Shown one piece after another: positions 3,478 through 31,173 of a DNA stretch of 64,000 nt (position 1 is its first letter; each line of letters opens with the position of its first letter). Origin of the DNA: Chitinophagaceae bacterium (lineage in GTDB: Bacteria; Bacteroidota; Bacteroidia; Chitinophagales; Chitinophagaceae). The translations under genes and the position numbers were made by a program. The stretch spans positions 1,409 through 65,408 of the forward strand of contig JAHEMN010000003.1 in the NCBI GenBank assembly GCA_024643645.1. Reading direction: 5' to 3'. The notes beneath the pieces are model-generated. The model was not told the DNA's origin, did not search any database, and saw only the letters and a list, made by a program, of their open reading frames with translations.

Positions 3478-3930
3478 ATGTCAGCCAAAATCCGTCTACA
3501 AAGACACGGGTCTAAAAAAAGACCTTTTTACTTCATCGTTATTGCCGATTCAAGGGCTCCCCGTGATGGTAAATTCATTCAAAAATTAGGTACTTACAAT
3601 CCACTGACTGTTCCTGCTACTATTCAGCTTGATCGTCAGAAAGCATTGGAGTGGTTGAACAAAGGTGCTACACCAACTGACACCGTTCGCCGCATTCTTA
3701 GCTTCAAAGGTGTATTATACCTTAAGCATTTGCTCCGTGGTGTGAGCTTAGGCCTTTTTGATGATGCTGCTGCAATGGAAAAGTTCACCTTGTGGAGTTT
3801 AGAACATGAAGCACAGATCAAAAGACGCCAGGAAGAAGCCTATCGCAACAAAAGAGCAAGACGTCCGATGCCAGGTCGCAGACCTGAACCAAGACAGGAA
3901 GCTGCTGATGATGCAGGTAATGAAGGATAA
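3478..3930 (+). CDS. rpsP: 30S ribosomal protein S16 with C-terminal extension
   Basis: [42 protein letters not shown]; ATG at 3478 preferred over the TTG at 3451. Confidence 0.97.
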
Positions 3931-3955
3931 ATAAATCCACATCCTGAAATTTCTT

Positions 3956-3990
3956 AATCCCGTTTCGTTTTAAACGAGACGGGATTTTTT
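3956..3990 (+). terminator. Intrinsic terminator after rpsP
   Basis: AATCCCGTTTCGTTT-t-AAACGAGACGGGATT plus T-tract. Confidence 0.8.
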
Positions 3991-3995
3991 ATTTA

Positions 3996-4023
3996 GCCAC
4001 AGAATACACAGATTTGCACAGAT
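3996..4023. repeat. Three tandem CACAGA(T) units
   Basis: GCCACAGAATACACAGATTTGCACAGAT, 9-10 nt period. Confidence 0.45.
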
Positions 4024-7752: not shown

Positions 7753-7817
7753 TGACATAAATCATTACAGCCCCTGCAGTTTATCATTAATCTACTTCAG
7801 GCACAACCTTATTTTCG
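7753..7817 (+). promoter_or_regulatory. Tandem Crp/Fnr-like boxes plus -7 element (P1)
   Basis: TGAC-ATAA-ATCA at 7753, TGCA-GTTT-ATCA at 7775, TATTTTCG at 7810. Confidence 0.7.
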
Positions 7818-7833
7818 ATACTTGAACAGATAA

Positions 7834-7971
7834 ATGAATATAGCTATGCCTATTCATAATATTATTATAGCAATACTAAATTCAATAACAGAACCGGATA
7901 AATCAATTATACATATAGTTAATAGAATATCCCTTGAAAACAAGGCAAATGCCATTTTTTATGCTTACTAA
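7834..7971 (+). CDS. Candidate 45-aa small protein
   Basis: ATG 7834 to TAA 7969-7971 directly after P1: MNIAMPIHNIIIAILNSITEPDKSIIHIVNRISLENKANAIFYAY; no family recognised. Confidence 0.3.
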   Translation: MNIAMPIHNIIIAILNSITEPDKSIIHIVNRISLENKANAIFYAY

Positions 7972-7981
7972 TTCAATTACT

Positions 7982-8401
7982 ATGCGTTTAACTATAGATA
8001 CACAGCGGCAGATCAGTGATATTCAAAAAGAATTCAATGAAATTTTCCCATTCTTGAAATTGGAATTTTTTAATAATAAATCTTTCTCCCGAAATAATTT
8101 TACTTCAAGCCAGATCATTCCCCGTAATCGAAAATTAGGCGATAGTCAAAAAGGAATTGAAAATGGGTTTATTGAAATAGAAGAATCAATGAAAGTAAGT
8201 GAACTTGAAAATCTTTTCAGAGATAAATATCGATTAGCGGTACAGGTATTTAGGAAATCAGGAAATCTTTGGCTTGAAACTACAATGACAGATAACTGGT
8301 CACTCTTTCAGCAAAACAAACATGGCAGGGAAATTTCAACTAATAAAGCCATTGATACAGAAACTAAGGACTATGACCTGAACAGAGATGCTGATCATTA
8401 A
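7982..8401 (+). CDS. Conserved-looking hypothetical protein
   Basis: IQKEFNEIFPFLKLEFF and VQVFRKSGNLWLETT blocks; ATG 7982 preferred over TTG 7934. Confidence 0.75.
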   Translation: MRLTIDTQRQISDIQKEFNEIFPFLKLEFFNNKSFSRNNFTSSQIIPRNRKLGDSQKGIENGFIEIEESMKVSELENLFRDKYRLAVQVFRKSGNLWLETTMTDNWSLFQQNKHGREISTNKAIDTETKDYDLNRDADH

Positions 8402-8456: not shown

Positions 8457-9512
8457 TTAATACAATAAATGATTTAGTTTTTCTGTATTAATGATTGAAA
8501 TTTTGCCTTCTTTTATTGCTATTAATTTCTCCGATTTAAAATCACTAAGAGTTCTTATCAGGGATTCAGTGGCCGTTCCAACATAATGAGCAAAATCTTC
8601 TCTGGAAATCTCTAATGGCTTGTCTGGATTTTCTGAATTAAATTTTGTCTGAATATCTATTAATGCCTTTGCAACTCTTTTGCGTAAAGAACTATAAGCA
8701 AGGCTCAACAATCTTTCTTCTTTCTCCTTCACATTCTGAGTAATAATCCTGATAAACTTTGCCGCAACATCCATATTGCCATAGATCATACTTAAGAAAT
8801 CATCTTTCGGAATCTGCATAATTTCAGCTTCTTCCATAACTACTGCCGAATCATCATAATTTTTATCTTCAATCAATGCCGGATATCCAATAAAATCTCC
8901 ATCACTAAACAGATCAGTTATATATTCCTTACCATCTTCATGTGTTTTAAACCCCTTCACCTTTCCTTTCACCAGGTAATACAGGTATCGGGGCCTTTTG
9001 CTCTCCTGATAAAGGGTTTGTTTTTTGGAATAGCTTTCAACATCATACTGATCAGATAATTGACTAATAAGCCCCGAATTTTTTACATCTTTAATAAATT
9101 CATTGATCCCATCCTGGGAAGGTGCATATCTGTTATTGAGTATGGCTGCTTTCTTTAATCTTGTTTCAATTCCATTTAACAATTCGATATCCTCAAATGG
9201 TTTTGTAATATAATCGTCAGCTCCCATTTCCATTCCTTTTCTTAAATCACTCCTCTCCGTTTTTGCAGTAAGAAACACAAAAGGAATATTTTCTGTTTCT
9301 TCATTTTTTCGAAGCAGATGCAAAACGCCATAACCATCCAATTCAGGCATCATAATATCACATACAATTACATCGGGCTTCTCTTTCAATGCAACCTCAA
9401 CACCCCTTTTCCCATTTTCTGCAGTAAAAGTTTTATATCCAGCTAATTCAAGAATTTCGGCTGTGTTCTCCCGGATATCCGGGTTGTCATCAATAACTAA
9501 AACAGATTTCAT
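8457..9512 (-). CDS. Response regulator: REC + cNMP-binding fold + Crp/Fnr HTH
   Basis: VIDD...CDIMMP receiver; LYYLVKGKVK beta-barrel; ISREDFAHYVGTATESLIRTLSDF helix-turn-helix. Confidence 0.92.
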   Translation of the reverse strand: MKSVLVIDDNPDIRENTAEILELAGYKTFTAENGKRGVEVALKEKPDVIVCDIMMPELDGYGVLHLLRKNEETENIPFVFLTAKTERSDLRKGMEMGADDYITKPFEDIELLNGIETRLKKAAILNNRYAPSQDGINEFIKDVKNSGLISQLSDQYDVESYSKKQTLYQESKRPRYLYYLVKGKVKGFKTHEDGKEYITDLFSDGDFIGYPALIEDKNYDDSAVVMEEAEIMQIPKDDFLSMIYGNMDVAAKFIRIITQNVKEKEERLLSLAYSSLRKRVAKALIDIQTKFNSENPDKPLEISREDFAHYVGTATESLIRTLSDFKSEKLIAIKEGKISIINTEKLNHLLY

Positions 9513-10747
9513 TTTTTATTTGGTTTAACCGGTACGGTAAAGTTAACTGTAGTTCCCTTATTTAATTCACTTTCTATACTAACTTTTCCACCAATCAGGT
9601 CTATGTACCTTTTTACAATATGCAGGCCAAGTCCAGTACCTTGAATATTTGTTGCATTTGCTGCTCGGAAAAAACTGGAAAAAAGATGTGCTTTATCATC
9701 ATCAGAAATACCTATTCCCTGATCAATAACAGATACAATAATGTTATCCTCTTTCATTTTCCCTTTTATTACAATGGCTTTCTCTTCATCAGAAAACTTA
9801 ACCGCATTGCTTACTAGGTTTATTAATATATTTCTGAACAATTTTTTGTCTGTAAAACCAACCAGATCATTGTTACAGTCCAATTCAAATATTTGCCCTT
9901 TTTTCAAAATAGCTTTCATCTCATCCAACGTTTGTTCGATCAGCTCCTTAATATTTACATTCTCAGTTTCTGCTTCTAATTTTCCTTCGTTTAATTTACC
10001 GAGTGACAAAAAGTCTTCAAGTATATCATTTAAATTATTGACTGAATTTTTTATCCTTTGAATATGTTTATCCCTTTTTACCTGGTCTTCTGCAGTTATA
10101 TATTTTGCCAATAAAGAAGCGGATGAAAATACAGTTGTAAGGGGGGTTCTGAATTCATGAGAAGCCATAGAAACAAAACGACTTTTTATCTCATTAAGCT
10201 GCCGCTCTTTATCTAAAGCTTCACTCAACTCTTCCTGTGACTGTTCCAGCTTTTGCAAAGCTTCTTTTAAGATCAATGTCCTTTCCTCTACTTTAATTTC
10301 AAGATCAGCATTCAGTTGTCTGATCTTTCCTGTTATATTTTCAAGTTCTGCTTTTTGAAGCAGCATACTATTCTCAATTTCTTTTCTTTTAGTAATATCA
10401 ATTACAAAAGCGATCACAAACATTTCACCATCTCTTGTATAATGGCTTAAACTTATTTCCACCGGTAAATCTGAACCATCTTTTTTTCGGCCATGCAGAT
10501 CTCTTCCATGACCCATGGTACGATTGGAGGGTTTTTTATAAAACCCTTCTCTTAATTCATTATGATGTGGTTTGAATTTCTCAGGTATAAGAATTTCAAT
10601 TGGTTTACCTATTAATTCTTCATCAGCATACCCAAACATTTTTCTAACCGCCGGATTAGCCATTACAATAAAACCTTTTCCACTTGTTAGGATTATCCCT
10701 TCAGTTGCATTCTCAAATAAAGAGGTCATATGGGCCTGATCGAGCAT
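9509..10747 (-). CDS. FixL-like PAS sensor histidine kinase
   Basis: PAS with ILIPEKFKPHH and GHGRDLHGRKKDG; H-box SHEFRTPL; N box NLVSNAVKF; G boxes DQGIG and GTGLGL. Confidence 0.92.
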   Translation of the reverse strand: MLDQAHMTSLFENATEGIILTSGKGFIVMANPAVRKMFGYADEELIGKPIEILIPEKFKPHHNELREGFYKKPSNRTMGHGRDLHGRKKDGSDLPVEISLSHYTRDGEMFVIAFVIDITKRKEIENSMLLQKAELENITGKIRQLNADLEIKVEERTLILKEALQKLEQSQEELSEALDKERQLNEIKSRFVSMASHEFRTPLTTVFSSASLLAKYITAEDQVKRDKHIQRIKNSVNNLNDILEDFLSLGKLNEGKLEAETENVNIKELIEQTLDEMKAILKKGQIFELDCNNDLVGFTDKKLFRNILINLVSNAVKFSDEEKAIVIKGKMKEDNIIVSVIDQGIGISDDDKAHLFSSFFRAANATNIQGTGLGLHIVKRYIDLIGGKVSIESELNKGTTVNFTVPVKPNKK

Positions 10748-13377: not shown

Positions 13378-13411
13378 ATACAAACATGCTCATCTGTATT
13401 GAAAATCAGGC

Positions 13412-13476
13412 TGATTAATATCATTTATTTCTTTGATGATAGTCATGGCCATTAAAAACATGTGCCAATACTTTTG
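13412..13476 (+). promoter_or_regulatory. Tandem Crp/Fnr-like boxes plus -7 element upstream of nos operon (P4)
   Basis: TGAT-TAAT-ATCA at 13412, TGAT-GATA-GTCA at 13434, TACTTTTG at 13469. Confidence 0.8.
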
Positions 13477-13526: not shown

Positions 13527-13997
13527 ATGAAACTTGCCAACTTATGTACTGCATTAGCATTTGCATTTAGCCTTGTTTTTATTTCCTGTAAAGAAGGGGT
13601 AAAAAAAGACGAAAAACCAATTGATGTACAGGAATTAACAAAGGATCAACCTGAAACTCATGGTACTGAACTAAAAGAAAGTGATATCACATTAAGTACT
13701 CCTTTGGATCAAACAATGGTAAGCACTGGTAAAGGCATTTATGAATTAAAATGCCAGTCTTGCCATAAACTAACTGAAGAAAAATTAGTAGGCCCTGGTT
13801 GGAAAGATGTAACAAAAACCCGGAAGCCGCTATGGATTATGAATATGATTACTAATGTCGATATGATGTTGGCATCTGATCCTGAAGCGCAAAAATTGCT
13901 TGAACAATGTTTAGTTCGTATGCCTAATCAAAATATTACAACCGAAGATGCAAGAAATGTAGTTGAGTTTATGCGTAATAACGACGGAGAAAAATAG
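13527..13997 (+). CDS. Monoheme cytochrome c lipoprotein (nos-associated)
   Basis: Lipobox FISC, CQSCH heme motif, RMPNQ candidate Met ligand. Confidence 0.9.
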   Translation: MKLANLCTALAFAFSLVFISCKEGVKKDEKPIDVQELTKDQPETHGTELKESDITLSTPLDQTMVSTGKGIYELKCQSCHKLTEEKLVGPGWKDVTKTRKPLWIMNMITNVDMMLASDPEAQKLLEQCLVRMPNQNITTEDARNVVEFMRNNDGEK

Positions 13998-14024
13998 TAT
14001 CACTAAACATATAAATTAAAATTT

Positions 14025-16019
14025 ATGAAAATCTTCCAACCAAAAAACTTGCAATACCTCCTTATTGCAGTTTTTGCATTTTTCTTCCTAGAAAGTTGCA
14101 AACCGAAAGGAGCACAATCCGCTGCTGGCGGAGATGCATCAAAAGCTTATGTAGCGCCAGGTAAATATGATGAGTTTTACAATTTTGTATCCGGTGGTTT
14201 CAGCGGACAAATGTCTGTTTATGGATTACCATCCGGTAGATTATTAAGGGTTATTCCGGTTTTTTCAACTGACCCTGAAAAAGGTTGGGGTTTTAGTGAA
14301 GAAACAAAACCGATGTTGAACACATCACATGGGTTTGTACCCTGGGATGACGCCCATCATCCTGAAATGTCGCAGACCAATGGAGAAGTGGATGGACGCT
14401 GGGTATTTATCAATGGAAATAATACTCCACGTATAGCAAGAATTGATCTGAAAACATTCCGCACAGCAGAAATATTAGAAATTCCAAATAGTGCTGGTAA
14501 TCACTCTTCTGCTTTTGTTACACAAAATACAGAGTATGTTGTAGCGGGAACCCGTTTCAGTATTCCACTGGATAATATGAATGGAGATGTTCCAATTGAT
14601 AGTTACAAACAAAATTTTAAAGGAACTGTCAGTTTTATAAAAGTAGATTCTACAGATGGTAATATGAAAATTGCATTCCAGATTCGAACACCAGGTGTAA
14701 ACTTTGACCTAAGCCATGCCGGCAAAGGGAATAGTCATGGATGGTTCTTCTTCTCATGCTATAATTCTGAACAAGCTAATACTTTATTAGAAGTAAATGC
14801 ATCGCAAAGAGATAAAGATTTTATCATGGCAGTGAATTGGAAAAAAGCAGAGGAATATTTAAAAGCAGGTAAGGGAACAAAGCAGTCTGTTCGTTATGCT
14901 CATAATAAATACAGCGATATTAATCATAGTGCAACATCAACTATAGAAACAGAAGTGACTGTTTTAGATGCTAAAGAGTTAGCGGAAATGGTATACTTAA
15001 TTCCATGCCCTAAGTCTCCACATGGTTGTGATGTAGACCCTACTGGTGAATATATTGTTGGTAGTGGTAAATTAGCAGCTTTGATGCCGGTATATTCATT
15101 CACTAAGCTACAAAAAGCTATTGCAGATAAAGCATTCGATGGAGATTATGAAGGGATTCCTGTTATAAAGTATGAAGCAGCTTTGCATGGTGAAGTACAG
15201 AAACCAGGCTTGGGCCCTCTACACACAGAATTTGATGGAAATGGAAATGCTTATACATCCATGTTTGTTTCTTCTGAAATAGTAAAATGGAATGTAAAAA
15301 GTCTTCAGGTTTTAGACAGGGTACCTACTTATTACTCAATCGGTCACTTATGTGTACCTGGTGGTGATAGCAGAAAACCTTTTGGTAAATATGTTATTGC
15401 TTATAACAAAATCACTAAGGACAGATATTTGCCAACCGGACCTGAATTAACTCAAAGTGCTCAACTTTATGATATCAGTGGTGACAAAATGAAGCTCATA
15501 CTTGACTTCCCTACTATTGGAGAACCACACTATGCCCAAGCTGCACCGGCTGAATTGATTAATAAAAATTCAGTAAAGTTTTTCAAAATTGAAGAAAGTC
15601 AACATCCTTATGTTGCTAAAGGTGAAGGACAAGCCAATATTATAAGAGAAGGAAATAAAGTACATATTAAAATGACTTCCATCCGATCTCATTTTAATCC
15701 AGATAATATTGAAGGTATTAAAGTTGGCGACGAAGTATATTTCCATGTAACTAATCTTGAACAAGACTGGGATGTGCCACATGGATTTTCTATTAAAGGT
15801 GCTAACAATGCTGAATTGCTTATTATGCCAGGAGAAACCCAGACTTTAAAATGGCTGCCTGAAAAAGCAGGGATGTTCCCATTTTATTGCACTGACTTCT
15901 GTTCTGCACTTCATCAGGAAATGCAGGGATATATAAGAGTTTCACCATCAGGTAGCAGTGTCCCACTTTCATTTGGAACAGGTAGAAAACCAACACCATC
16001 CGCGGCAAAAGAACCATAA
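14025..16019 (+). CDS. nosZ: Clade II (Sec-dependent) nitrous-oxide reductase
   Basis: No twin-Arg motif, lipobox LESC; CuZ His motifs DAHH, GNHS, PHG, GPLH, EPH; CuA motif CTDFCSALHQEM. Confidence 0.97.
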   Translation: MKIFQPKNLQYLLIAVFAFFFLESCKPKGAQSAAGGDASKAYVAPGKYDEFYNFVSGGFSGQMSVYGLPSGRLLRVIPVFSTDPEKGWGFSEETKPMLNTSHGFVPWDDAHHPEMSQTNGEVDGRWVFINGNNTPRIARIDLKTFRTAEILEIPNSAGNHSSAFVTQNTEYVVAGTRFSIPLDNMNGDVPIDSYKQNFKGTVSFIKVDSTDGNMKIAFQIRTPGVNFDLSHAGKGNSHGWFFFSCYNSEQANTLLEVNASQRDKDFIMAVNWKKAEEYLKAGKGTKQSVRYAHNKYSDINHSATSTIETEVTVLDAKELAEMVYLIPCPKSPHGCDVDPTGEYIVGSGKLAALMPVYSFTKLQKAIADKAFDGDYEGIPVIKYEAALHGEVQKPGLGPLHTEFDGNGNAYTSMFVSSEIVKWNVKSLQVLDRVPTYYSIGHLCVPGGDSRKPFGKYVIAYNKITKDRYLPTGPELTQSAQLYDISGDKMKLILDFPTIGEPHYAQAAPAELINKNSVKFFKIEESQHPYVAKGEGQANIIREGNKVHIKMTSIRSHFNPDNIEGIKVGDEVYFHVTNLEQDWDVPHGFSIKGANNAELLIMPGETQTLKWLPEKAGMFPFYCTDFCSALHQEMQGYIRVSPSGSSVPLSFGTGRKPTPSAAKEP

Positions 16020-16030
16020 AAATAAACAAT

Positions 16031-16061
16031 ATGAACTCCTCTTCAATAAAGAGGAGTTCAT
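16031..16061 (+). other. Intra-operon stem-loop after nosZ
   Basis: ATGAACTCCTCT-7nt-AGAGGAGTTCAT, no T-tract. Confidence 0.6.
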
Positions 16062-16101
16062 TACCAATTAGCATCTCATATAAAAACTAAAACTGTTTGA
16101 T

Positions 16102-16671
16102 ATGAAAAATTTAATAAAAATATTTTCAGCAATAATTATCTTTTCTTTTTTTATTGCTTGTAATAATGAAAATAAAGAATCTTCTACGGCTGACAACACT
16201 AATACTACGACGGCAGGCGGTCAAGAGGCAGTACAAGATGATGAATCAGAAAAAGATATTGTAAAGATTGCGGTTGGATCTAAAGATCACACAACACTAG
16301 TTGCTGCTTTACAACAAGCAGATTATGTAACTGCATTATCTAATGCAGGTCCATTCACAGTTTTTGCACCAACAAATGCCGCTTTCGATAAGTTACCTGC
16401 AGGTACAGTTGAAGGTTTAATGAAAGCAGATAAGAAACTAGACTTACAGAATATTCTTGAATATCATGTTTCTATTGGTGTATTTAAAGAAGATATGATG
16501 CAAGATGGGCAAATGATTGATCAGGCTAATAATAAAAAAATCACTATCAGCAAAGGGGCTGATGGCAAAATAAAAGTAAACGGAACTGCTAATATTGTTG
16601 CAGCGATAAAGGCAAGTAATGGATTGGTGTATGTAATAGATGAAGTATTACTACCACCTGCGAAAAACTAA
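16102..16671 (+). CDS. Fasciclin (FAS1) domain lipoprotein
   Basis: Lipobox FIAC; GPFTVFAPTNAAF and NGLVYVIDEVLLP. Confidence 0.92.
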   Translation: MKNLIKIFSAIIIFSFFIACNNENKESSTADNTNTTTAGGQEAVQDDESEKDIVKIAVGSKDHTTLVAALQQADYVTALSNAGPFTVFAPTNAAFDKLPAGTVEGLMKADKKLDLQNILEYHVSIGVFKEDMMQDGQMIDQANNKKITISKGADGKIKVNGTANIVAAIKASNGLVYVIDEVLLPPAKN

Positions 16672-16699
16672 GTCTGAAAAGACTTCTTCATTTTAAACT

Positions 16700-16725
16700 A
16701 CCTCCGGGTGTAAAAACCCGGAGGT
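16700..16725 (+). other. Intra-operon stem-loop after fasciclin gene
   Basis: ACCTCCGGGT-6nt-ACCCGGAGGT. Confidence 0.6.
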
Positions 16726-16739
16726 TAATTTACCAACAA

Positions 16740-17330
16740 ATGAATAAACATCTTAGTATACCTTCAAGGATTCTTGTAGCTTTTGCCAGTGGCGCCCTTA
16801 TAGCGGTTTTTCTACTTCCTGCCTGGCGAATTGATCTTTTTGCTCCTCAGTATCCCGAAGGACTATCTATGTACATATGGATAAACAAACTAAGTGGTGA
16901 TATAGACATTATTAATGGATTAAATCATTACATAGGAATGAAACATATATCAATGGAAATGTTTCCTGAGTTTAAATATATGTCCTATGTCGTTTTATTT
17001 TTTATGTTGTTGGGTATGACAGCTGCCATTACTGGAAAACGAAAAATATTATTAGCCTATATCATAGCGACAATTATTGGGGGCTTATTAGTACTTTATG
17101 ATTTATATAGGTGGGGTTATGATTATGGTCACAACCTGGATTCAAAAGCAGCGATTCAAGTGCCTGGATTATCATATCAGCCTCCAGTAATAGGCCATAA
17201 ACGTCTTTTAAATTTCGATGCATATTCTTTCCCAGATGCTGCAGGATGGATTGTAATAGGTGCTGGTTCATTATGCATCATTGTCTGGCTTGTGGAATGG
17301 TATATTAATAGAAAAAATAAAACGAAATGA
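16740..17330 (+). CDS. nosB: NosB-like membrane protein of clade II nos clusters
   Basis: Four hydrophobic segments, APQYPEGL and INGLNHYIGM motifs, position in nos operon. Confidence 0.7.
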   Translation: MNKHLSIPSRILVAFASGALIAVFLLPAWRIDLFAPQYPEGLSMYIWINKLSGDIDIINGLNHYIGMKHISMEMFPEFKYMSYVVLFFMLLGMTAAITGKRKILLAYIIATIIGGLLVLYDLYRWGYDYGHNLDSKAAIQVPGLSYQPPVIGHKRLLNFDAYSFPDAAGWIVIGAGSLCIIVWLVEWYINRKNKTK

Positions 17331-17770
17331 AATCAAATACATCCTTATTGATATTAACTTTTTTATTATTCATTTTCACCTCTTGTTCGTCTCAACCGCA
17401 ACCTTTTGTTACAGGACAGGATGATTGTCATGTTTGCAAGATGGGTTTAGTTGATTTCAAATATGGCGGAGAAATAATTACGAATAAGGGAAAAGTTTAC
17501 AAATTTGATGATATGCGTTGTATGATCAGTTTTATCAAATCTAATTCCCTCGAAGAAAAAGAAATTTCAAAAACCCTAACCATGAATTTTAATAAACCTA
17601 ATGAATTTTTGGATGTAAAAAAAGCATGGTTTGCTGTAAGTGCTGATTTAAGAAGCCCAATGGGTAGTAATGCAGCCGGATTTGGTTCAAAATCAGAAGC
17701 AGAAAATGTCTTAAAAGACAAAACCGGTCAGATTTTTCGTTGGGCCGACTTATTAGAAAGGAGTAAATAG
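17327..17770 (+). CDS. nosL: NosL copper chaperone lipoprotein
   Basis: Lipobox FTSC, CHVCKM, FDDMRCM, SPMG. Confidence 0.9.
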   Translation: MKSNTSLLILTFLLFIFTSCSSQPQPFVTGQDDCHVCKMGLVDFKYGGEIITNKGKVYKFDDMRCMISFIKSNSLEEKEISKTLTMNFNKPNEFLDVKKAWFAVSADLRSPMGSNAAGFGSKSEAENVLKDKTGQIFRWADLLERSK

Positions 17771-17773
17771 TTC

Positions 17774-19006
17774 ATGAAGTTTATTGCAATAATAATAATC
17801 CTGGCCTTCTCAGTCTCGTCATTTGGTAATACAATTACTGTAGGTAAAGATAAATCGATAACCAGTATTTCAAAAGGGGTTGCATTAGCCAAAAATGGAG
17901 ATACTGTAAAAGTGTATCCAGGTTTTTACCGTGAAGGAAGAATCACTGTTACTAAGCAAATTACTTTAATTGGAATAAATTTTCCGGTGATTGATGGACA
18001 AAAAAAATTTGAAAATTTAGTTGTTAGCGGTAGTAATATCAAGATAATGGGTTTTCATTTTATAGATTCCAAACATTCCAGCTCTGAAGATTATTCTGCA
18101 ATCAATATTATTGATGCCACAAATATTATAATTGAGAATAACAAAATCACTAATGCACATTTCGGTATTCATATTGCAAACAGTACATTTTGTACAGTAA
18201 AAGGGAATGATATAGTCGGGCAAGCTGTTTCAGAACAAAGTGCAGGCAATGGTATACATATCTGGAAATCATCACATGCATTTATTACCAATAACCATAT
18301 TCAGGGTCATCGTGATGGTATATACTTCGAATTTGTAACAGATTCCGAAATCAGAAATAACAAGAGTGAAAACAATATCCGTTATGGTTTGCATTTTATG
18401 TTTTCACATAATAATTACTATGCATATAACACATTTAGGAAAAACGGAGCCGGAGTTGCAGTTATGTACACCCATCATGTAAGAATGGAACATAATATTT
18501 TTGAACAAAACTGGGGAACTGCTTCTTATGCCATTCTATTAAAGGATATTACAGATAGCTGGATAATCAATAATCAATTTATCTCTAATACAATCGGCAT
18601 ATTCATGGAAGGTTGTAATAGAATTGATGTTAAGAAGAATATATTTAGTAAAAATGGCTGGGCAATGAAAGTTCAGGCAAACTGTGTAGACAACGTAATT
18701 ACAAATAATAATTTCAAAAGTAACACATTTGATATTTCAACTAATGGAACAATGGTTTCAAGCAGTTTTGAGTACAACTATTGGGATAAATACGAAGGCT
18801 ATGATCTAAATAAAGACGGAATCGGGGATATCACTTATCATCCTGTTAGTATGTATTCAATGATCATCGAGCAAAATCCAAATGCTTTGATACTTTTACG
18901 AAGTTTTATGGTAACGCTTTTGGACAAAGCAGAAAAAGCACTACCCACTTTAACCCCTGAAAACCTGGTAGACAGAAAACCAAAGATGAAACCCTTTCAA
19001 TTATGA
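17774..19006 (+). CDS. nosD: NosD periplasmic copper-insertion protein
   Basis: Beta-helix repeats, GNGIHIW, RYGLHFMFS, NYWDKY, DGIGD. Confidence 0.95.
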   Translation: MKFIAIIIILAFSVSSFGNTITVGKDKSITSISKGVALAKNGDTVKVYPGFYREGRITVTKQITLIGINFPVIDGQKKFENLVVSGSNIKIMGFHFIDSKHSSSEDYSAINIIDATNIIIENNKITNAHFGIHIANSTFCTVKGNDIVGQAVSEQSAGNGIHIWKSSHAFITNNHIQGHRDGIYFEFVTDSEIRNNKSENNIRYGLHFMFSHNNYYAYNTFRKNGAGVAVMYTHHVRMEHNIFEQNWGTASYAILLKDITDSWIINNQFISNTIGIFMEGCNRIDVKKNIFSKNGWAMKVQANCVDNVITNNNFKSNTFDISTNGTMVSSSFEYNYWDKYEGYDLNKDGIGDITYHPVSMYSMIIEQNPNALILLRSFMVTLLDKAEKALPTLTPENLVDRKPKMKPFQL

Positions 19007-19746
19007 TCAGAATAGAAAATATTAATAAGCGGTTTAAAAAGCTAAAAGCACTGGATAATATTTCTGCCTCATTTGAAAAAGGTCAGGTAATCTCTTTGAT
19101 TGGGCCAAACGGATCTGGAAAAACTACTTTGATTAAATCAATTCTAGGAATGGTAAAGCCAGATAGTGGTAAAATATATTTTAACAATGAACATATAAAT
19201 GGAGGATTTAGTTATCGGAAAGATATCGGCTATATGCCTCAAATCGGTCGCTATCCTGACAATATGAAAGTTGGCCAGCTATTTAGCATGTTGAAAAATA
19301 TCCGTAATGAACCAGATGAAAATCTCGATAATGAATTAATACGGGAATTTAATCTTTGTACCATTTTTGAAAAACCGATGCGCACCTTATCAGGTGGCAC
19401 CAGGCAAAAAGTAAGTGCTGCAATTGCATTTTTATTTAATCCATCTGTACTTATTCTTGATGAACCAACAGCTGGACTTGACCCCTTATCATCTGAAATC
19501 TTAAAAGAAAAAATTATCAGGGAGAAAGGAAAGGGAAAACTAATTCTTATTACATCACATATACTCAGTGATCTTGATGAACTTACAACTCATGTTATGT
19601 ATATACAAGAAGGTAAAATACAATTTTTGAAAAACATTGAAACACTAAGAGAAGATACCGGAGAAATAAAACTTGGCAAAGCTATTGCAAGGATTATGAA
19701 AGGCGAAGACCCAACAGGTAATTTCATTTCTGAATTTCTGAAATAA
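19003..19746 (+). CDS. nosF: NosF ABC ATPase
   Basis: GPNGSGKTT, LSGG, ILDEPTAGLD; overlaps nosD stop. Confidence 0.92.
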   Translation: MIRIENINKRFKKLKALDNISASFEKGQVISLIGPNGSGKTTLIKSILGMVKPDSGKIYFNNEHINGGFSYRKDIGYMPQIGRYPDNMKVGQLFSMLKNIRNEPDENLDNELIREFNLCTIFEKPMRTLSGGTRQKVSAAIAFLFNPSVLILDEPTAGLDPLSSEILKEKIIREKGKGKLILITSHILSDLDELTTHVMYIQEGKIQFLKNIETLREDTGEIKLGKAIARIMKGEDPTGNFISEFLK

Positions 19747-19762
19747 AATAATTAATTAAGCA

Positions 19763-20530
19763 ATGATGAAACTCCCACGATACGTATTGTATGATATTCT
19801 AAGAAGCAAAATAATTATTGCATATACCTTATTTCTCTTCATTGTTTCTCTCAGTATGTTTCAGATGGAAGAAGATAGCAGTAAAGCCATGCTAAGCCTG
19901 ATGAATATCATTCTAATCGTTTTGCCATTGGTGAGTTTGATATTTACTACAATTCATTATTACAATTCCTATGAATTTATTGAATTAATGCTTTCACAAC
20001 CATTGAGCAGAAAAAGAATTCTTTTAAGTGAGTTTGCCGGAGTTGCTTTATCATTATTGTCTTCGTTCATGATCGGGGTGGGTATACCCGTATTACTTTA
20101 TTCAGCTTCAGAAACAGGCTTTGCACTTTTATTTACAGGAGCATCTCTAACATTGGTATTTACATCAATTGCATTTCTTGCTTCTGTAATATCCAGAGAC
20201 AAAGCAAAAGGCATAGGCTTTGCTTTGTTGCTGTGGTTCTATTTTACATTAATATATGACGGACTAGTTCTTTTAATACTATTTTCTTTCAGCGATTATC
20301 CTTTGGAAAAATTCACTCTTTTGCTATCTGCATTAAATCCTGTTGATCTTGGCCGGATATTTATTATGCTTAAAATGGATGTAAGTGCTCTAATGGGATA
20401 TACTGGTGCATTATATAAAGATTTTTTTGGAAGTGGCGCCGGTTTACTTTATACCATTGGCATTATGACTCTATGGATTATTATTCCATTATGGATTGCA
20501 GTAAGGAAATTCAATAAAAAAGATTTATAA
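19763..20530 (+). CDS. nosY: NosY ABC permease
   Basis: Multiple hydrophobic helices, LNPVDL motif, follows nosF. Confidence 0.88.
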   Translation: MMKLPRYVLYDILRSKIIIAYTLFLFIVSLSMFQMEEDSSKAMLSLMNIILIVLPLVSLIFTTIHYYNSYEFIELMLSQPLSRKRILLSEFAGVALSLLSSFMIGVGIPVLLYSASETGFALLFTGASLTLVFTSIAFLASVISRDKAKGIGFALLLWFYFTLIYDGLVLLILFSFSDYPLEKFTLLLSALNPVDLGRIFIMLKMDVSALMGYTGALYKDFFGSGAGLLYTIGIMTLWIIIPLWIAVRKFNKKDL

Positions 20531-24115: not shown

Positions 24116-26272
24116 ATGCAAGAAACAAATCAAGGCATGCAAATTGAAAAATTTTATTACGATAATAAAATTGTAAAAGCCTTTGGATATGCTACTGTCA
24201 TTTTTGGTATTGTTGGCATGATAGTAGGTTTATGGGTAGCTATCCAGTTCTATTATCCCGATAGCAGCCTCAATTTTGCAGCTACTACATTTGGGCGTTT
24301 AAGACCATTGCATACCAATGCTATCATTTTTGCATTTGTAGGTAATGCTTCATTTGCCGGTATTTATTATTCTTTACAGCGTTTGTGTAAAGCAAGAATG
24401 TTCAGTGACAAACTGGGCTGGGTACATTTCTGGGGCTGGCAATTAATTATTGTTGGTGCCGCTATCACCTTGCCATTAGGGCTTAATAATGGTGCTGAAT
24501 ATGCAGAGTTGATCTGGCCAATTGACATCGCAATTGCATTAGTATGGGTCATATTCGGTATCAATATGTTTGGCACAATTCTAAAAAGAAGAGAAAAACA
24601 TTTATACGTTGCAATATGGTTTTATATTGCTACCTGGGTTACCGTTGCTTTATTACATATTGTCCGCTCTGTAGAATTACCTTATTCACTCACTGGTAGT
24701 TATAGTTGGTATGCCGGTGTACAAGATGCATTGGTACAATGGTGGTATGGTCATAATGCTGTAGCATTTTTCCTTACTACACCTGTTTTAGGATTGATGT
24801 ATTATTTCCTTCCTAAAGCTGCAAACAGACCCGTTTATTCATATCGTCTTTCTATTATTCACTTTTGGGCGTTGATATTTATTTACATATGGGCTGGCCC
24901 TCACCATTTACTATATACAGCTTTACCTGACTGGGCACAATCACTTGGTGTTGTATTTTCTATTATGTTGATTGCCCCTAGCTGGGGTGGAATGCTGAAT
25001 GGATTATTTACACTACGTGGCGCATGGGACAAAGTAAGAGAAGATCCTGTTTTAAAATTTATGGTAGTAGCCATTACCTGTTATGGCATGAGTACTTTAG
25101 AAGGTCCCCTTATGAGTTTGAAAAGTGTAAATGCTGTGGCTCACTTTAGCGACTGGATCGTAGCACATGTTCATATCGGCGGTTTGGGATGGAATGGCTT
25201 CATGGCATTCTCTATACTATATTATATGATTCCTAAAATGTGGGGTACTAATTTATATTCAAAAAAATTAGCTACTAATCACTTTTGGCTGGGCACAATA
25301 GGAATTATTATCTATGCAGTTCCATTGTATTGGGCAGGATTTGAACAAAGTATTATGTGGAAACAGTTTACTCCCGAAGGACAATTGAAATTCGACTTCC
25401 TGCAAACTGTTACCAATATTCGACCTATGTATATAGCCCGGAGTATTGGTGGCACATTATACCTGATTGGTGCTTTCATAATGACATATAACCTTTATAA
25501 GACTATAAGACAGGGTAAATTCATAGCAAATGAAGCAGCTGAAGCTGCGCCATTAATTAAAGAGGTATCTAAGAAAAAAGAATACTGGCACAGGGTAATT
25601 GAAAGAAAACCATTGACCATGTTGGTCTTAAGTCTTGTATTAGTGGCAATAGGTGGATTAGTACAAATGATTCCGACATTCCTTGTAAAATCAAATGTGC
25701 CGACACTGGCCAGTGTAAAGCCTTATACACCTTTGGAATTGCAAGGCAGGGATATATATGTACGGGAAGGATGTTACACTTGTCATTCCCAAATGATAAG
25801 ACCATTTAGGGATGAAGTAGCCCGCTATGGAGAATACTCAAAAGCAGGTGAGTTTGTTTACGATCATCCTTTCCAATGGGGAAGCAAACGGACTGGCCCG
25901 GATTTGGCAAGAGAAGGAGCAAATAAAAATAAAAGACCAGACTCCTGGCATTTCAATCATATGTATGATCCAACATCTACATCTCCAGGATCACTAATGC
26001 CAAGATATATCTGGTTACTTGATAATAAACTGGATACAAATTCAACACCTGCAAAAATAAGAGCTATGCAAACCTTAGGGGTTCCGTATCCGGAAGGATA
26101 TGACAAAATAGCTAATCAGAAACTGATGGAGCAAGCAGAGGCAATTACTGCCAATCTAAAAAAAGAAAAAATAGAAACAGCATCAGACGCTGAGATCATT
26201 GCTGTTATCGCTTACTTACAACGATTAGGAAAGGATATAGAGAATGAACCCAAACCTATTACAAAACAATAA
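24116..26272 (+). CDS. ccoNO: Fused cbb3 cytochrome c oxidase subunits I and II
   Basis: LRPLHTN, WWYGHN, WAGPHH, HVHIG; C-terminal CYTCH and WGSKRTGPDL. Confidence 0.97.
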   Translation: MQETNQGMQIEKFYYDNKIVKAFGYATVIFGIVGMIVGLWVAIQFYYPDSSLNFAATTFGRLRPLHTNAIIFAFVGNASFAGIYYSLQRLCKARMFSDKLGWVHFWGWQLIIVGAAITLPLGLNNGAEYAELIWPIDIAIALVWVIFGINMFGTILKRREKHLYVAIWFYIATWVTVALLHIVRSVELPYSLTGSYSWYAGVQDALVQWWYGHNAVAFFLTTPVLGLMYYFLPKAANRPVYSYRLSIIHFWALIFIYIWAGPHHLLYTALPDWAQSLGVVFSIMLIAPSWGGMLNGLFTLRGAWDKVREDPVLKFMVVAITCYGMSTLEGPLMSLKSVNAVAHFSDWIVAHVHIGGLGWNGFMAFSILYYMIPKMWGTNLYSKKLATNHFWLGTIGIIIYAVPLYWAGFEQSIMWKQFTPEGQLKFDFLQTVTNIRPMYIARSIGGTLYLIGAFIMTYNLYKTIRQGKFIANEAAEAAPLIKEVSKKKEYWHRVIERKPLTMLVLSLVLVAIGGLVQMIPTFLVKSNVPTLASVKPYTPLELQGRDIYVREGCYTCHSQMIRPFRDEVARYGEYSKAGEFVYDHPFQWGSKRTGPDLAREGANKNKRPDSWHFNHMYDPTSTSPGSLMPRYIWLLDNKLDTNSTPAKIRAMQTLGVPYPEGYDKIANQKLMEQAEAITANLKKEKIETASDAEIIAVIAYLQRLGKDIENEPKPITKQ

Positions 26273-27672: not shown

Positions 27673-29109
27673 GTGATGACTGAAACAAAAACACAAGTTG
27701 AACAAACTGAATCCTTTCGTGACAGGATAGCAACTGTAGATGCAAAAGGAAAAAGGAAATGGGTATTTGCACAAAAACCCAAAGGGAGATTTTATAATAT
27801 CCGTACAATAGTTAGTCTTGGTTTTTTTGCTTTATTTTTTACTTTGCCGTTTTTAAAGTTCAATGGAAGGCCACTATTTTTATTTAATATCCCGGAAGCC
27901 AAGTTCATCATTTTTGGGAAAATATTCTGGCCACAGGATTTTTTCATCTTCGGCCTCACAATGGTCACTTTCATTATTTTCATTGTCCTTTTTACTGCAG
28001 CATTCGGAAGGCTTTTTTGCGGATGGGTATGTCCCCAAACCATTTTTATGGAAATGCTGTTTCGTAAAGTGGAATATTTGATAGAAGGAGATGCGGCCAA
28101 ACAAAAATTATTGAAAGCCTCACCATGGACCGGAGAAAAAATAAGAAAAAAAACTACCAAGCATACGGTATTTTTTATTCTGGCCTTTATTATCGCAAAT
28201 TTCTTTCTTGCCTATATTATTGGCATTGATGAACTGAAGAAAATAATAAGTGAGCCTGTTAGCCAGCACATGATAGGGTTTCTTTCTTTACTACTTTTCT
28301 CTGGAATTTTTTATGGCGTATATGCTTCCTTTCGTGAGCAAGTGTGTACTGTTGTTTGCCCTTATGGCAGATTACAAAGTGTATTACTTGATAGAAATTC
28401 TATGCTGGTTGCTTATGATTATAAAAGAGGGGAGCCAAGAGATAAGTATAAAAAAAATGCAGCGCCGGAATTAAATACCGGCGATTGTATTGATTGCTTT
28501 CAGTGTGTAAAAGTATGTCCAACAGGAATTGACATTCGAAATGGCACACAAATGGAATGTGTAGGTTGTACTGCCTGTATTGATGCTTGTGATAAAATGA
28601 TGGTAGCTGTTAACAGGCCAAAAGGGTTGATTCGATATGCTTCAGAGAGTGGAATATCTGAAGGAAAAAAATTACGGTATACAGGAAGAATGAAATTTTA
28701 TACATTCCTGCTAATTATATTATCTGGTATTCTTACATTATTATTATTGAGCCGAAAAGATATTGATGGTACGATTCTACGTACCAAGGGGTTAACTTAC
28801 CAGGAAAGAGGCACTGACAGTCTTTCTAATTTATTTAATATTAAAGTCATCAATAAGACAATAAAAGACATGCCTGTTACATTAAGACTTGAAGGTGAAG
28901 CACTGAATACCGGAAAAATAGAACTAGTTGGAGCAACAGATATTCATCTTAAACAAGAAGATCAGGCTACTGGTTCTTTTTTTGTAGTGCTACCAAGAAG
29001 CTTTGTTACAAAAAGAAAAATGAAAATCAGCATTGGTTTATATAATGGTGAGAAAAAAATAACCGCTCTTAATACAAATTTCACTGGGCCTTTCACCAGA
29101 AACAATTAA
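27673..29109 (+). CDS. ccoG: CcoG/FixG 4Fe-4S accessory protein
   Basis: CGWVCPQT, CPYGR, CIDCFQCVKVCP, CVGCTACIDAC. Confidence 0.95.
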   Translation: MMTETKTQVEQTESFRDRIATVDAKGKRKWVFAQKPKGRFYNIRTIVSLGFFALFFTLPFLKFNGRPLFLFNIPEAKFIIFGKIFWPQDFFIFGLTMVTFIIFIVLFTAAFGRLFCGWVCPQTIFMEMLFRKVEYLIEGDAAKQKLLKASPWTGEKIRKKTTKHTVFFILAFIIANFFLAYIIGIDELKKIISEPVSQHMIGFLSLLLFSGIFYGVYASFREQVCTVVCPYGRLQSVLLDRNSMLVAYDYKRGEPRDKYKKNAAPELNTGDCIDCFQCVKVCPTGIDIRNGTQMECVGCTACIDACDKMMVAVNRPKGLIRYASESGISEGKKLRYTGRMKFYTFLLIILSGILTLLLLSRKDIDGTILRTKGLTYQERGTDSLSNLFNIKVINKTIKDMPVTLRLEGEALNTGKIELVGATDIHLKQEDQATGSFFVVLPRSFVTKRKMKISIGLYNGEKKITALNTNFTGPFTRNN

Positions 29110-29559: not shown

Positions 29560-30272
29560 TGCTATTACCGGTATTAATATCAGGGTTTACATTAGGCGCT
29601 GCTGGTAGTCTGCATTGTGTGGGTATGTGCGGGCCTTTAAGTCTTGCATTACCAGTTCATCAATTAACCGGAATTAAAAAATTCTTCTCTTTACTATTTT
29701 ATCAAATTGGAAGAATCGTTACATATTCAATTATCGGATTATTATTTGGATTAGCGGGTAGAAGAATCTATATATCGGGATACCAACAATCGTTTTCCAT
29801 TATAATGGGAATCGTTGTACTTTCTTTAGCTACTTTATATTTCTTTAGGAAAAGAACAATTCATCTTTCATTCATGAACCGTTTTTATGTTATGGTTCAA
29901 AATATAATTATCAGGCTCATCAAATCGGTCAATAATTCGTTCAGCTTCTTCCTGATGGGTTTGGCCAATGGATTATTACCCTGTGGAATGGTATATATTG
30001 CTATTGCTGCAACATTATCTCTATCAACTGTAACAGAAAGTGTAAGTTTTATGGCGATGTTTGGCGCCGGAACATTACCTGCAATGATGCTGATTGGCTA
30101 TGCCGGTCAAATGATAAAACCCGAATACAGAAGTTTTTTCAGAAAGCTTGTGCCTGTATTTATTACTCTGATGGGTATCGTTTTGATATTAAGAGGAATG
30201 AACCTGGGTATTCCTTATATCAGTCCTGAATTACCGATATCTCCCGGTGATGTAATTGAATGTCATCCATAA
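29559..30272 (+). CDS. TauE/SafE-like (DsbD_2) membrane protein of cbb3 clusters
   Basis: HCVGMCG and LLPCG motifs, multiple hydrophobic helices. Confidence 0.88.
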   Translation: MLLPVLISGFTLGAAGSLHCVGMCGPLSLALPVHQLTGIKKFFSLLFYQIGRIVTYSIIGLLFGLAGRRIYISGYQQSFSIIMGIVVLSLATLYFFRKRTIHLSFMNRFYVMVQNIIIRLIKSVNNSFSFFLMGLANGLLPCGMVYIAIAATLSLSTVTESVSFMAMFGAGTLPAMMLIGYAGQMIKPEYRSFFRKLVPVFITLMGIVLILRGMNLGIPYISPELPISPGDVIECHP

Positions 30273-30279
30273 AATAAAT

Positions 30280-30344
30280 TGACCATTCTCATTTAAAATT
30301 CTGATGAACATCAACATTTCATCATTTCATCAACGTTACTTTTA
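30280..30344 (+). promoter_or_regulatory. Tandem Crp/Fnr-like boxes plus -7 element with no downstream CDS (P7)
   Basis: TGAC-CATT-CTCA at 30280, TGAT-GAAC-ATCA at 30302, TACTTTTA at 30337. Confidence 0.72.
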
Positions 30345-30349
30345 TGCTT

Positions 30350-30436
30350 TAACACACATATAATGCTCACATCCGTGAGTAATTGTTGGTTTTTGTTTCA
30401 ATATCGAACCCCCGGCTCTCCGGGGGTTCTTGTTTT
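30350..30436 (+). ncRNA. Candidate low-oxygen-induced small RNA
   Basis: Lies between P7 and a 10-bp GC-rich terminator; internal hairpin CTCAC-atcc-GTGAG and a U-rich stretch; boundaries inferred. Confidence 0.5.
30406..30436 (+). terminator. Strong intrinsic terminator
   Basis: GAACCCCCGG-ctct-CCGGGGGTTC followed by TTGTTTT. Confidence 0.85.
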
Positions 30437-30480
30437 GGGATAAAACTACCTGGTAAGCTCCATTCAAATTCTCACTTATA

Positions 30481-30488
30481 TATCTTTG
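30481..30488 (+). promoter_or_regulatory. Bacteroidota -7 element just before trmD
   Basis: TATCTTTG matches TAnnTTTG, 4 nt before the ATG. Confidence 0.55.
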
Positions 30489-30492
30489 CTTC

Positions 30493-31173
30493 ATGCATAT
30501 CGATATTATTACTGTACTCCCGGAATTATTAGAAAGCCCATTCCAACATAGCATTATGAAAAGGGCTCAGGATAAAGGACTTTTGACTGTACAGGTACAT
30601 CAGCTTCGCAAATGGGCTGTAAATGAATATGGTATGGTAGATGACTATCAATATGGCGGCGGTGCGGGAATGGTAATGATGTGTGAACCACTTACAAAAG
30701 CAATTGAGGAATTATCTGCCAACAAAAAGTATGATGAGATCATTTTCCTTACTCCTGATGGTGAAACGTTTAATCAGAAAATGGCAAATTCTTTATCCTT
30801 GAAAGAAAGTTTATTACTTATATGTGGGCATTACAAAGGAATTGATGAAAGGATAAGAGAGCATTTTGTAACAAAAGAGATCTCAATTGGTGATTATGTT
30901 TTAAGTGGAGGAGAATTACCAGCTGCAATTTTAGTGGATGCAATTGGCCGCTTATTACCCGGCGTTTTAAATGACGAAACTTCTGCATTGACTGATTCAT
31001 TTCAGGATAATTTGTTAGCCCCTCCTGTTTATACCCGGCCCGTTGATTATAGAGGCTGGAAAGTGCCGGATATTTTAATGAGTGGCGATCATAAAAAGAT
31101 AGAAGAATGGCGACATGAACAATCACTGATAAGAACAAAAGAAAGAAGGCCGGATCTTCCTGAAAATCAGTAA
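30493..31173 (+). CDS. trmD: tRNA (guanine37-N1)-methyltransferase
   Basis: [37 protein letters not shown]. Confidence 0.97.

Follow-up and report, generated by a model that had tools for sequence, protein, structure and literature searches.

The locus downstream of the cco cluster

The window analysed here, a 64,000-nucleotide stretch of DNA to which all coordinates refer, derives from an uncultured bacterium of the family Chitinophagaceae. Its nearest public genomes are metagenome-assembled Chitinophagaceae with ~70% protein identity in a flanking gene, and among sequencing runs the window's own sequence was present in sediment metagenomes only. Pfam analysis placed a clade II nos cluster at 13527-20530, followed by ccoI (21437), ccoS (23940), a fused ccoNO (ATG at 24116), ccoQ, ccoP, ccoG (ATG at 27676) and fixH. 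The last gene of the cco cluster encodes a DsbD_2-family membrane protein and ends at 30272 (stop codon 30270-30272). Further downstream, on the same strand as the element described below, lies trmD (ATG at 30493). A consensus −7 box, TATCTTTG (30481-30488), ends 4 nt before this ATG and is thus placed for transcription to start at the ATG itself, which predicts a leaderless or nearly leaderless trmD mRNA.

A preliminary description of this DNA had proposed a small RNA (sRNA) gene between the cco cluster and trmD, and our analysis recovered each of the parts that it named. These included a regulon-type promoter 8 nt past the last cco-cluster stop codon, with its first box from 30280; a hairpin (30364-30381); a U-rich run (30383-30399); an intrinsic terminator (30406-30436); and a sole ATG at 30363, which opens an ORF of 26 codons running through the terminator (30363..30443, 26 aa). 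The predicted sRNA lies on the forward strand at 30349..30436 and is ~86-88 nt long, with a 5′ end at 30349-30352, as judged from the −7 box, and a 3′ end in the U tract. Covariance models of the family described below matched the interval 30341-30440 with 94 bits (model R1) and 83 bits (model R2), and the fold of the 90-nt RNA had a z-score of −4.3 relative to shuffled sequences.

Alignments revealed an unpaired A/C-rich segment at the 5′ end of the predicted RNA, AACACACAUAUAA (30351..30363, +), followed by hairpin 1 (30364..30381, +), in which UGCUCAC and GUGAGUA form seven pairs around the loop AUCC. Next is the U/G-rich run TTGTTGGTTTTTGTTTC (30383-30399, +), which lies within a U/G-rich seed, UUGUUGGUUUUUGUUUCAAU (30383..30402, +), left unpaired by the consensus structure. 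The seed of the predicted sRNA reads GUUUUUGUUUC, and the consensus of the family seed is UUGGUUUUYGUUUC. The intrinsic terminator (30406..30436, +) consists of a 10-bp stem (30406-30429) with eight G-C pairs, the loop CUCU and the tail UUGUUUU (TTGTTTT in the DNA), which extends to 30436. As the preliminary description had supposed, the cco operon shares this terminator, which is the only one following the cco cluster in the window; because there is no terminator between the DsbD_2 stop codon and 30406, transcripts of the cco operon must traverse the element. Near the predicted 5′ end (30351-30358 in the window), most family members carry a second conserved unpaired motif, AAUACAC or AACACAC, which could be a second pairing region.

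A composite promoter common to the element and the nos and cco operons

Analysis of the sequence preceding the predicted sRNA revealed two Crp/Fnr-type boxes and a −7 element on the forward strand. The distal box, TGACCATTCTCA (30280..30291), has 7/8 of the specified bases, the proximal box, TGATGAACATCA (30302..30313), has 8/8, and the −7 element, TACTTTTA (30337..30344), corresponds to the Bacteroidota σA consensus TAnnTTTG. A lone FNR consensus, TTGATNNNNATCAA with two mismatches allowed, showed no enrichment in the window (108 found vs 102 expected); only a composite layout is informative. This layout was defined as two TGAY-N4-RTCA boxes spaced 22 nt apart (start to start) with a combined score of at least 14/16, plus a TAnnTTT[G/A] −7 box with a score of at least 5/6 located 35 nt after the start of the proximal box. 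Six instances were found in the window vs 0.017 per shuffled window, which is well above chance.

Five of the six instances are on the forward strand. Their proximal boxes are located at 7775, followed by an unknown ORF (7934-8401); 13434, followed by the nos operon, with the −7 box at 13469; 21374, followed by ccoI; 23879, followed by ccoS/ccoNO; and 30302, followed by the sRNA element. The sixth, on the reverse strand with its proximal box at 13423, precedes an Rrf2-family gene and has its palindromic boxes in common with the nos promoter. From the proximal box to the −7 box, the element has the same distance of 35 nt as the promoter of the nos operon (13434 to 13469). This common promoter design with nos, ccoI and ccoS/ccoN suggests that the sRNA would be switched on together with the genes for the high-affinity oxidase and N2O reductase. 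The full composite promoter at 7753-7825 (+) contains the boxes TGACATAAATCA and TGCAGTTTATCA and the −7 box TATTTTCG; the ORF behind it (155 aa) lacks a Pfam match and could be a regulon member that has so far gone unrecognised.

An FNR or CRP site centred at −41.5 is the geometry of class II promoters. The Bacteroidota −7 consensus TAnnTTTG has been located at positions −12 to −5 (PMC7366714 and PMC9723704), and the box in Flavobacterium spans −12 to −5 (PMC9723704). Applying this position to the −7 box of the element predicts a transcription start near 30349, with the proximal box centred at −41.5 and the distal box at about −63.5.

The promoter was conserved along with the element. Upstream sequence of at least 150 nt was available for 40 distinct homologues; the exact composite spacing was kept in 29 of these, and approximately six more contained both boxes with a −7 box displaced by 1-2 nt. 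Boxes were not recognisable in three of the 40, namely L082, L090 and the second copy of the element in L088.

With regard to the factor that may bind these boxes, the window encodes an unusual protein in which a receiver domain is joined to cNMP-binding and Crp helix-turn-helix domains (8457-9512, −), and its gene is overlapped by that of a PAS histidine kinase (9509-10747, −). Homologues of the kinase gene adjoin the sRNA in many loci. This receiver/Crp hybrid, acting with the PAS kinase, is the likely binder of the TGAY-N4-RTCA boxes, rather than a classical FNR.

A conserved RNA family with a covarying hairpin

Homologues were collected in three steps. A 14-mer, TTGGTTTTTGTTTC, was matched exactly in three related genomes (L002, L003 and L004); a covariance model built from four sequences then identified two more (L006 and L011) among 80 related genome loci; and a pattern scan of metagenome contigs returned 62 loci, 48 of which scored 50-122 bits. 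In total, the five related genomes (L002, L003, L004, L006 and L011) and the 48 metagenome contigs provided 44 distinct sequences. The family, as represented by these ~45 sequences, appears so far to be confined to one clade of uncultured Chitinophagaceae.

A covariance model from related regions, which had been suggested as a check on the preliminary description, thus uncovered a conserved RNA family, and its hairpin covaries. In the 42 distinct aligned sequences, all six modelled pairs of hairpin 1 (6/6) were changed on both sides, with compensatory examples including GCUCAU/AUGAGC, CUCAC/GUGAG, GCAGCCC/GGGAGC, CCGC/GCGG and ACUUUCC/GGAAGU. The terminator stem was 100% paired across the family and contained three covarying pairs. 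Approximately 94% of cells (94-94.5%) were paired, vs 39-57% when the partners were slid by 1-3 columns. RNAalifold analysis of 43 sequences gave only two helices, hairpin 1 and the terminator, and left the U/G-rich stretch unpaired. The first four sequences had also suggested a third helix, inside the seed; this was unsupported with 43 sequences and was dropped from the second model. The comparison thus shows the predicted sRNA to have a 5′ A/C-rich part, a covarying hairpin, an unpaired U/G-rich stretch of ~20 nt and a terminator.

The invariance of the seed in the metagenome matches is partly by construction, because the search pattern fixed the seed. The genome loci found with the covariance model are the only less biased source of evidence on this point. 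In the genome homologues, the seed core was identical or differed at one position; L006 and L011, both found with the covariance model, have a seed core one position off that of the window, even where hairpin 1 is wholly different.

Several loci contained additional elements. In L088, two copies of the sRNA (2761-2859 and 3771-3890) lie ~1 kb apart, and the second copy has a longer, unrelated first hairpin and lacks recognisable boxes. More distant Chitinophagaceae, such as Sediminibacterium and Hydrotalea, have a second sRNA-like element directly behind DsbD_2 (L053, 3812-3903; L024, 3887-3972; L028, 3850-3936; L014, 3833-3920; L046, 3864-3948; L026, 875-954). It consists of a conserved UUUUCUCAUAAGCAGUUAGUUUUGGUUGCGG and, after it, a terminator that covaries, and is preceded by a different motif (approximately AGAAAnnATTAACA) and a TTTG −7 box. 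Our covariance models matched it weakly (E ~4e-6 to 2e-3); a distant relative is one possibility, an analogue in the same position another. L005 carries tandem ~50-nt repeats (ctgtcttttctctttctctctttttcctccgggcgggttgtattccttc) directly after the DsbD_2 stop codon (~3800-4000).

Comparison of the loci revealed that the upstream neighbour of the element varies, being DsbD_2 on the same strand (as in the window), a diverging ScdA-like gene (ScdA_N/hemerythrin, with a histidine kinase gene beyond), an M20 peptidase gene or NosY/ScdA. Six loci (L006, L095, L106, L111, L112 and L117) have the element within the nos cluster, flanked by the ScdA-like gene and the Rrf2-family gene; in these, trmD is absent nearby and the Rrf2-family gene converges from downstream. 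In most loci, trmD follows on the same strand at ~110-640 nt. Because the element also occurs away from cco genes in other genomes, it is not simply an operon terminator. The conserved segment, covarying hairpin, conserved promoter and varied positions together support the earlier proposal of a separate sRNA gene that has a U-rich seed and a promoter of the regulon type, and a new sRNA family, as judged by sequence comparison, is well supported.

Coding potential and known RNA families

The open reading frame that begins within the element is the only recurrent one; it is present in 28 of the 44 sequences and absent from the other 16. Its ATGs are located in hairpin 1, in the stem and the loop (CAUGAAAAUGAG), where variants that preserve pairing remove them, and the frame is shifted by one-base insertions or deletions upstream of the terminator or inside it. 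We therefore rejected a small protein as the product, as no reading frame was conserved across the 44 members.

Comparison with Rfam gave no match for the whole window at the gathering score and only sub-threshold matches for 30100-30600 at E values up to 10, and FnrS (RF01796) was absent from these weak matches. The predicted RNA is thus not a homologue of FnrS, and the FnrS-like character ascribed to it in the preliminary description holds only in the sense of a possible functional analogue. A literature search for FNR-linked small RNAs in Bacteroidota returned nothing relevant.

Candidate targets of the U/G-rich seed

The search for pairing covered genes near the locus, and duplex energies were limited to the seed, since full-length duplexes open the terminator. 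The preliminary description had pointed to the nosB start, and the octamer ACCAACAA at 16732-16739 does abut its ATG (16740); the match itself is at chance level. Seed matches of at least 8 nt occurred in ~9% of 90-nt windows, and the nosB start region ranked 8th of 53 start regions by duplex energy, and we discarded nosB as a pairing candidate because neither value rises above background.

The ccoG start region, which ranked 2nd of 53 by duplex energy, contains a contiguous match. The candidate site, TGAAACAAAAAC (27681..27692, +), covers codons 2-6 and is complementary to sRNA positions 30389-30400 over all 12 nt. With pairing limited to the seed, the energy of the ccoG duplex was −15.9 kcal/mol vs −9.4 ± 2.4 kcal/mol for shuffled seeds. 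Across relatives, 11 of the 13 distinct ccoG start regions from sRNA-bearing loci matched the seed of their own locus by exact complementarity over at least 8 nt, with local empirical p values of 0.006-0.07 (kinship uncorrected), and both the position of the site and the part of the seed used varied between genomes. Control start regions with p below 0.1 numbered 0/20 for DsbD_2, 0/34 for trmD and 3/17 for fixH. The median length of the ccoG match was 10 nt in loci with the sRNA vs 7 nt in loci without it (Mann-Whitney p = 5e-6, uncorrected for relatedness), and some loci in which the sRNA was not detected also hold ccoG matches. The ccoG start of L005, a locus in which no sRNA was detected, contains an exact 12-nt seed complement, GAAACAAAAACC.

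The start regions of ccoN and ccoP had weaker matches of 8-9 nt. At the ccoNO start (ATG 24116), GAAACAAA occupies 24122-24129 (codons 3-5), a relative position like that of the ccoG site, and 8-nt matches were present in four of six orthologous ccoNO start regions. These target statistics are weak on their own, and A-rich early codons (Glu-Thr-Lys) are common. Nonetheless, by seed complementarity ccoG is a better-supported candidate target than nosB. Together with the precedent of the Bacteroides sRNA GibS discussed below, this complementarity leads us to propose that the sRNA modulates translation of ccoG and possibly of other cco genes while the regulon is active.

Metatranscriptomic evidence

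Three metatranscriptome runs of the window's own sediment sample yielded no RNA of the organism itself. Words from two homologues, L131 and L089, occurred in many runs labelled metatranscriptomic. For L089, the element was covered in four rRNA-depleted metatranscriptome assemblies by contigs of 89-320 nt that matched exactly (depth 4-13), and it was the sole part of a 4-kb stretch covered in 4/4 runs, with its surroundings mostly unassembled. One 89-nt contig (L089 13491-13579) nearly coincides with the predicted RNA; other L089 and L131 contigs pass the predicted ends, into the promoter or beyond the terminator. Runs labelled transcriptomic or miRNA-Seq yielded long, low-depth or mixed-strain contigs with undefined ends. 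Contig ends may reflect strain divergence rather than RNA ends, and DNA carry-over may contribute. The L089 coverage fits expression above that of neighbouring genes, without defining transcript ends. Downstream of the sRNA terminator in L089, a segment at 13397-13441 was matched by several contigs with otherwise unrelated flanks, which suggests a small repeated or mobile element.

A model for the sRNA and its alternatives

We propose that the region ~30349-30436 probably encodes a trans-acting, non-coding sRNA of ~87 nt, expressed from an activator-dependent two-box promoter, whose seed pairs with A-rich translation starts, with ccoG as the best candidate. The two Crp/Fnr-type boxes (about −63.5 and −41.5) and the −7 box would constitute the activator-dependent promoter. 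The receiver-domain/Crp hybrid (8457-9512) and the adjacent PAS kinase would act as the regulator, with low oxygen or N-oxides as the presumed signal. Once made, the RNA would use its U/G-rich stretch to pair with A-rich translation start regions independently of Hfq, as known Bacteroides small RNAs do. The best candidate target, the ccoG start, lies inside the same operon, and pairing there may tune how much of the assembly factors (CcoG, possibly also the DsbD_2 protein and FixH encoded downstream) is synthesised relative to the oxidase subunits.

The same sRNA might instead be induced by nitric oxide or another N-oxide through a DNR/NnrR-like regulator of the Crp family, a reading that we regard as possible, if doubtful. 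FNR, DNR and NnrR boxes are not known to be distinguishable by sequence. An N-oxide signal would fit the finding that, among the promoters of the window, that of the nos (N2O reductase) operon is the closest match, as well as the arrangement in many genomes, where the element diverges from the gene for an ScdA-like di-iron protein or adjoins the Rrf2-family gene of the nos cluster. In contrast, the same layout precedes ccoI and ccoS/ccoN, which are high-affinity oxidase genes, and the kinase beside the hybrid regulator has a PAS domain, as does the oxygen sensor FixL. Upregulation of the cbb3 oxidase under oxygen limitation in Flavobacterium psychrophilum (PMC9723704) also counts against an N-oxide signal. 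Neither the cbb3 promoters nor the PAS domain decides between low oxygen and N-oxides.

An origin mainly by processing from the 3′ end of the cco operon transcript, with the boxes weak or otherwise used, would leave the RNA real, and appears improbable to us. It would be compatible with the lack of a terminator between DsbD_2 and 30406 in the window, with the co-oriented upstream gene of the boxless members L082 and L090, and with the metatranscriptome contigs that reach upstream of the predicted start. However, approximately half of the loci place the element behind an opposite-strand gene or far from cco, yet retain the boxes and the −7 element at fixed spacing. Both routes to the RNA can also coexist.

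The proximity of trmD, which is the next gene on the same strand in most loci, could point to a cis-acting leader or attenuator, a function that we consider very unlikely. The distance to trmD ranges from ~110 to 640 nt and six loci lack trmD downstream; the consensus structure has two helices only, with no alternative to the terminator; and a −7 box placed for trmD itself is present in the window (30481-30488). Given the variable distance, the six trmD-less loci and this separate −7 box, the best reading of the linkage is synteny, with the whole nos/cco region adjoining trmD in this clade.

We give still less credence to a mere 3′ UTR and terminator of the cco operon with a chance promoter-like motif, or to a gene for a 26-codon protein. 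The terminator does serve the operon and a related ORF occurs in 28/44 homologues, but the composite promoter is expected only 0.017 times per window, hairpin 1 covaries, the element is kept in contexts away from cco genes, and the frame is absent from 16/44 members, loses its ATGs in paired variants and is shifted by indels.

Returning to the trans-acting sRNA as the preferred reading, we also offer, as a tentative extension with less than even chances, that it represents the first respiration-linked sRNA family (responsive to oxygen or N-oxides) described in Bacteroidota, forming a feed-forward loop within its own regulon, driven by the receiver/Crp regulator, in which the internal ccoG start would be paired either in trans or by fold-back of the operon 3′ end. 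If true, synthesis of the copper-handling assembly factors would be uncoupled from that of the oxidase subunits.

Relation to known small RNAs

FnrS of the Enterobacteriaceae (RF01796) has an FNR-type repeat near −41.5, is induced under anaerobiosis and depends on Hfq; PhrS of Pseudomonas is ANR-dependent and AniS of Neisseria is FNR-dependent. Like these, the element described here would encode a short RNA with a proposed action in trans, a predicted FNR/CRP box at −41.5, an unpaired seed and an intrinsic terminator, and its promoter suggests membership of a low-oxygen respiratory regulon. Unlike them, it has tandem boxes, a Bacteroidota −7 promoter instead of a σ70 promoter and, as its likely regulator, a receiver/Crp hybrid, and its predicted target lies inside a co-regulated operon rather than among genes of aerobic metabolism. 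It has no sequence or structure similarity to these RNAs, as judged from the lack of an Rfam hit, and belongs to none of their families; its own seed is U/G-rich.

In enterobacteria, DapZ and MicL are sRNAs encoded at the 3′ ends of mRNAs, with promoters of their own and a terminator in common with the upstream mRNA. The window sRNA similarly lies in tandem behind an operon, is predicted to start after the last stop codon and uses the operon terminator; its promoter is located past the coding sequence, in contrast to the promoters of DapZ and MicL inside it. Because many relatives have the gene on its own or divergent from the adjacent gene, this 3′-end position does not characterise the family.

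In Bacteroides, as in the phylum, there is no obvious homologue of Hfq or ProQ (PMC7366714); the host phylum differs in this from the hosts of FnrS, PhrS and AniS. GibS of Bacteroides thetaiotaomicron pairs with translation start regions of its targets and binds them in vitro without a protein cofactor (PMC7366714). The predicted sRNA resembles GibS and the intergenic sRNAs of B. thetaiotaomicron in its phylum, its conserved single-stranded seed and its TAnnTTTG promoter (PMC7366714). It shares no homology with GibS, whose seed is situated in a long 5′ part, unlike the seed here between hairpin and terminator. The regulons differ as well, with carbohydrate metabolism for GibS and, as predicted from sequence comparison, respiration here.

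Beyond the gut Bacteroides, regulation by RNA has hardly been explored in Bacteroidota. The Chitinophagaceae, which carry clade II N2O reductase, are abundant members of activated-sludge, soil and sediment communities. The hypothesis is directly testable through its fixed-spacing promoter code, its candidate regulator pair and the predicted ccoG target. An sRNA in the cbb3/nos regulon would provide a point at which microaerobic respiration and N2O consumption in these communities are controlled post-transcriptionally.
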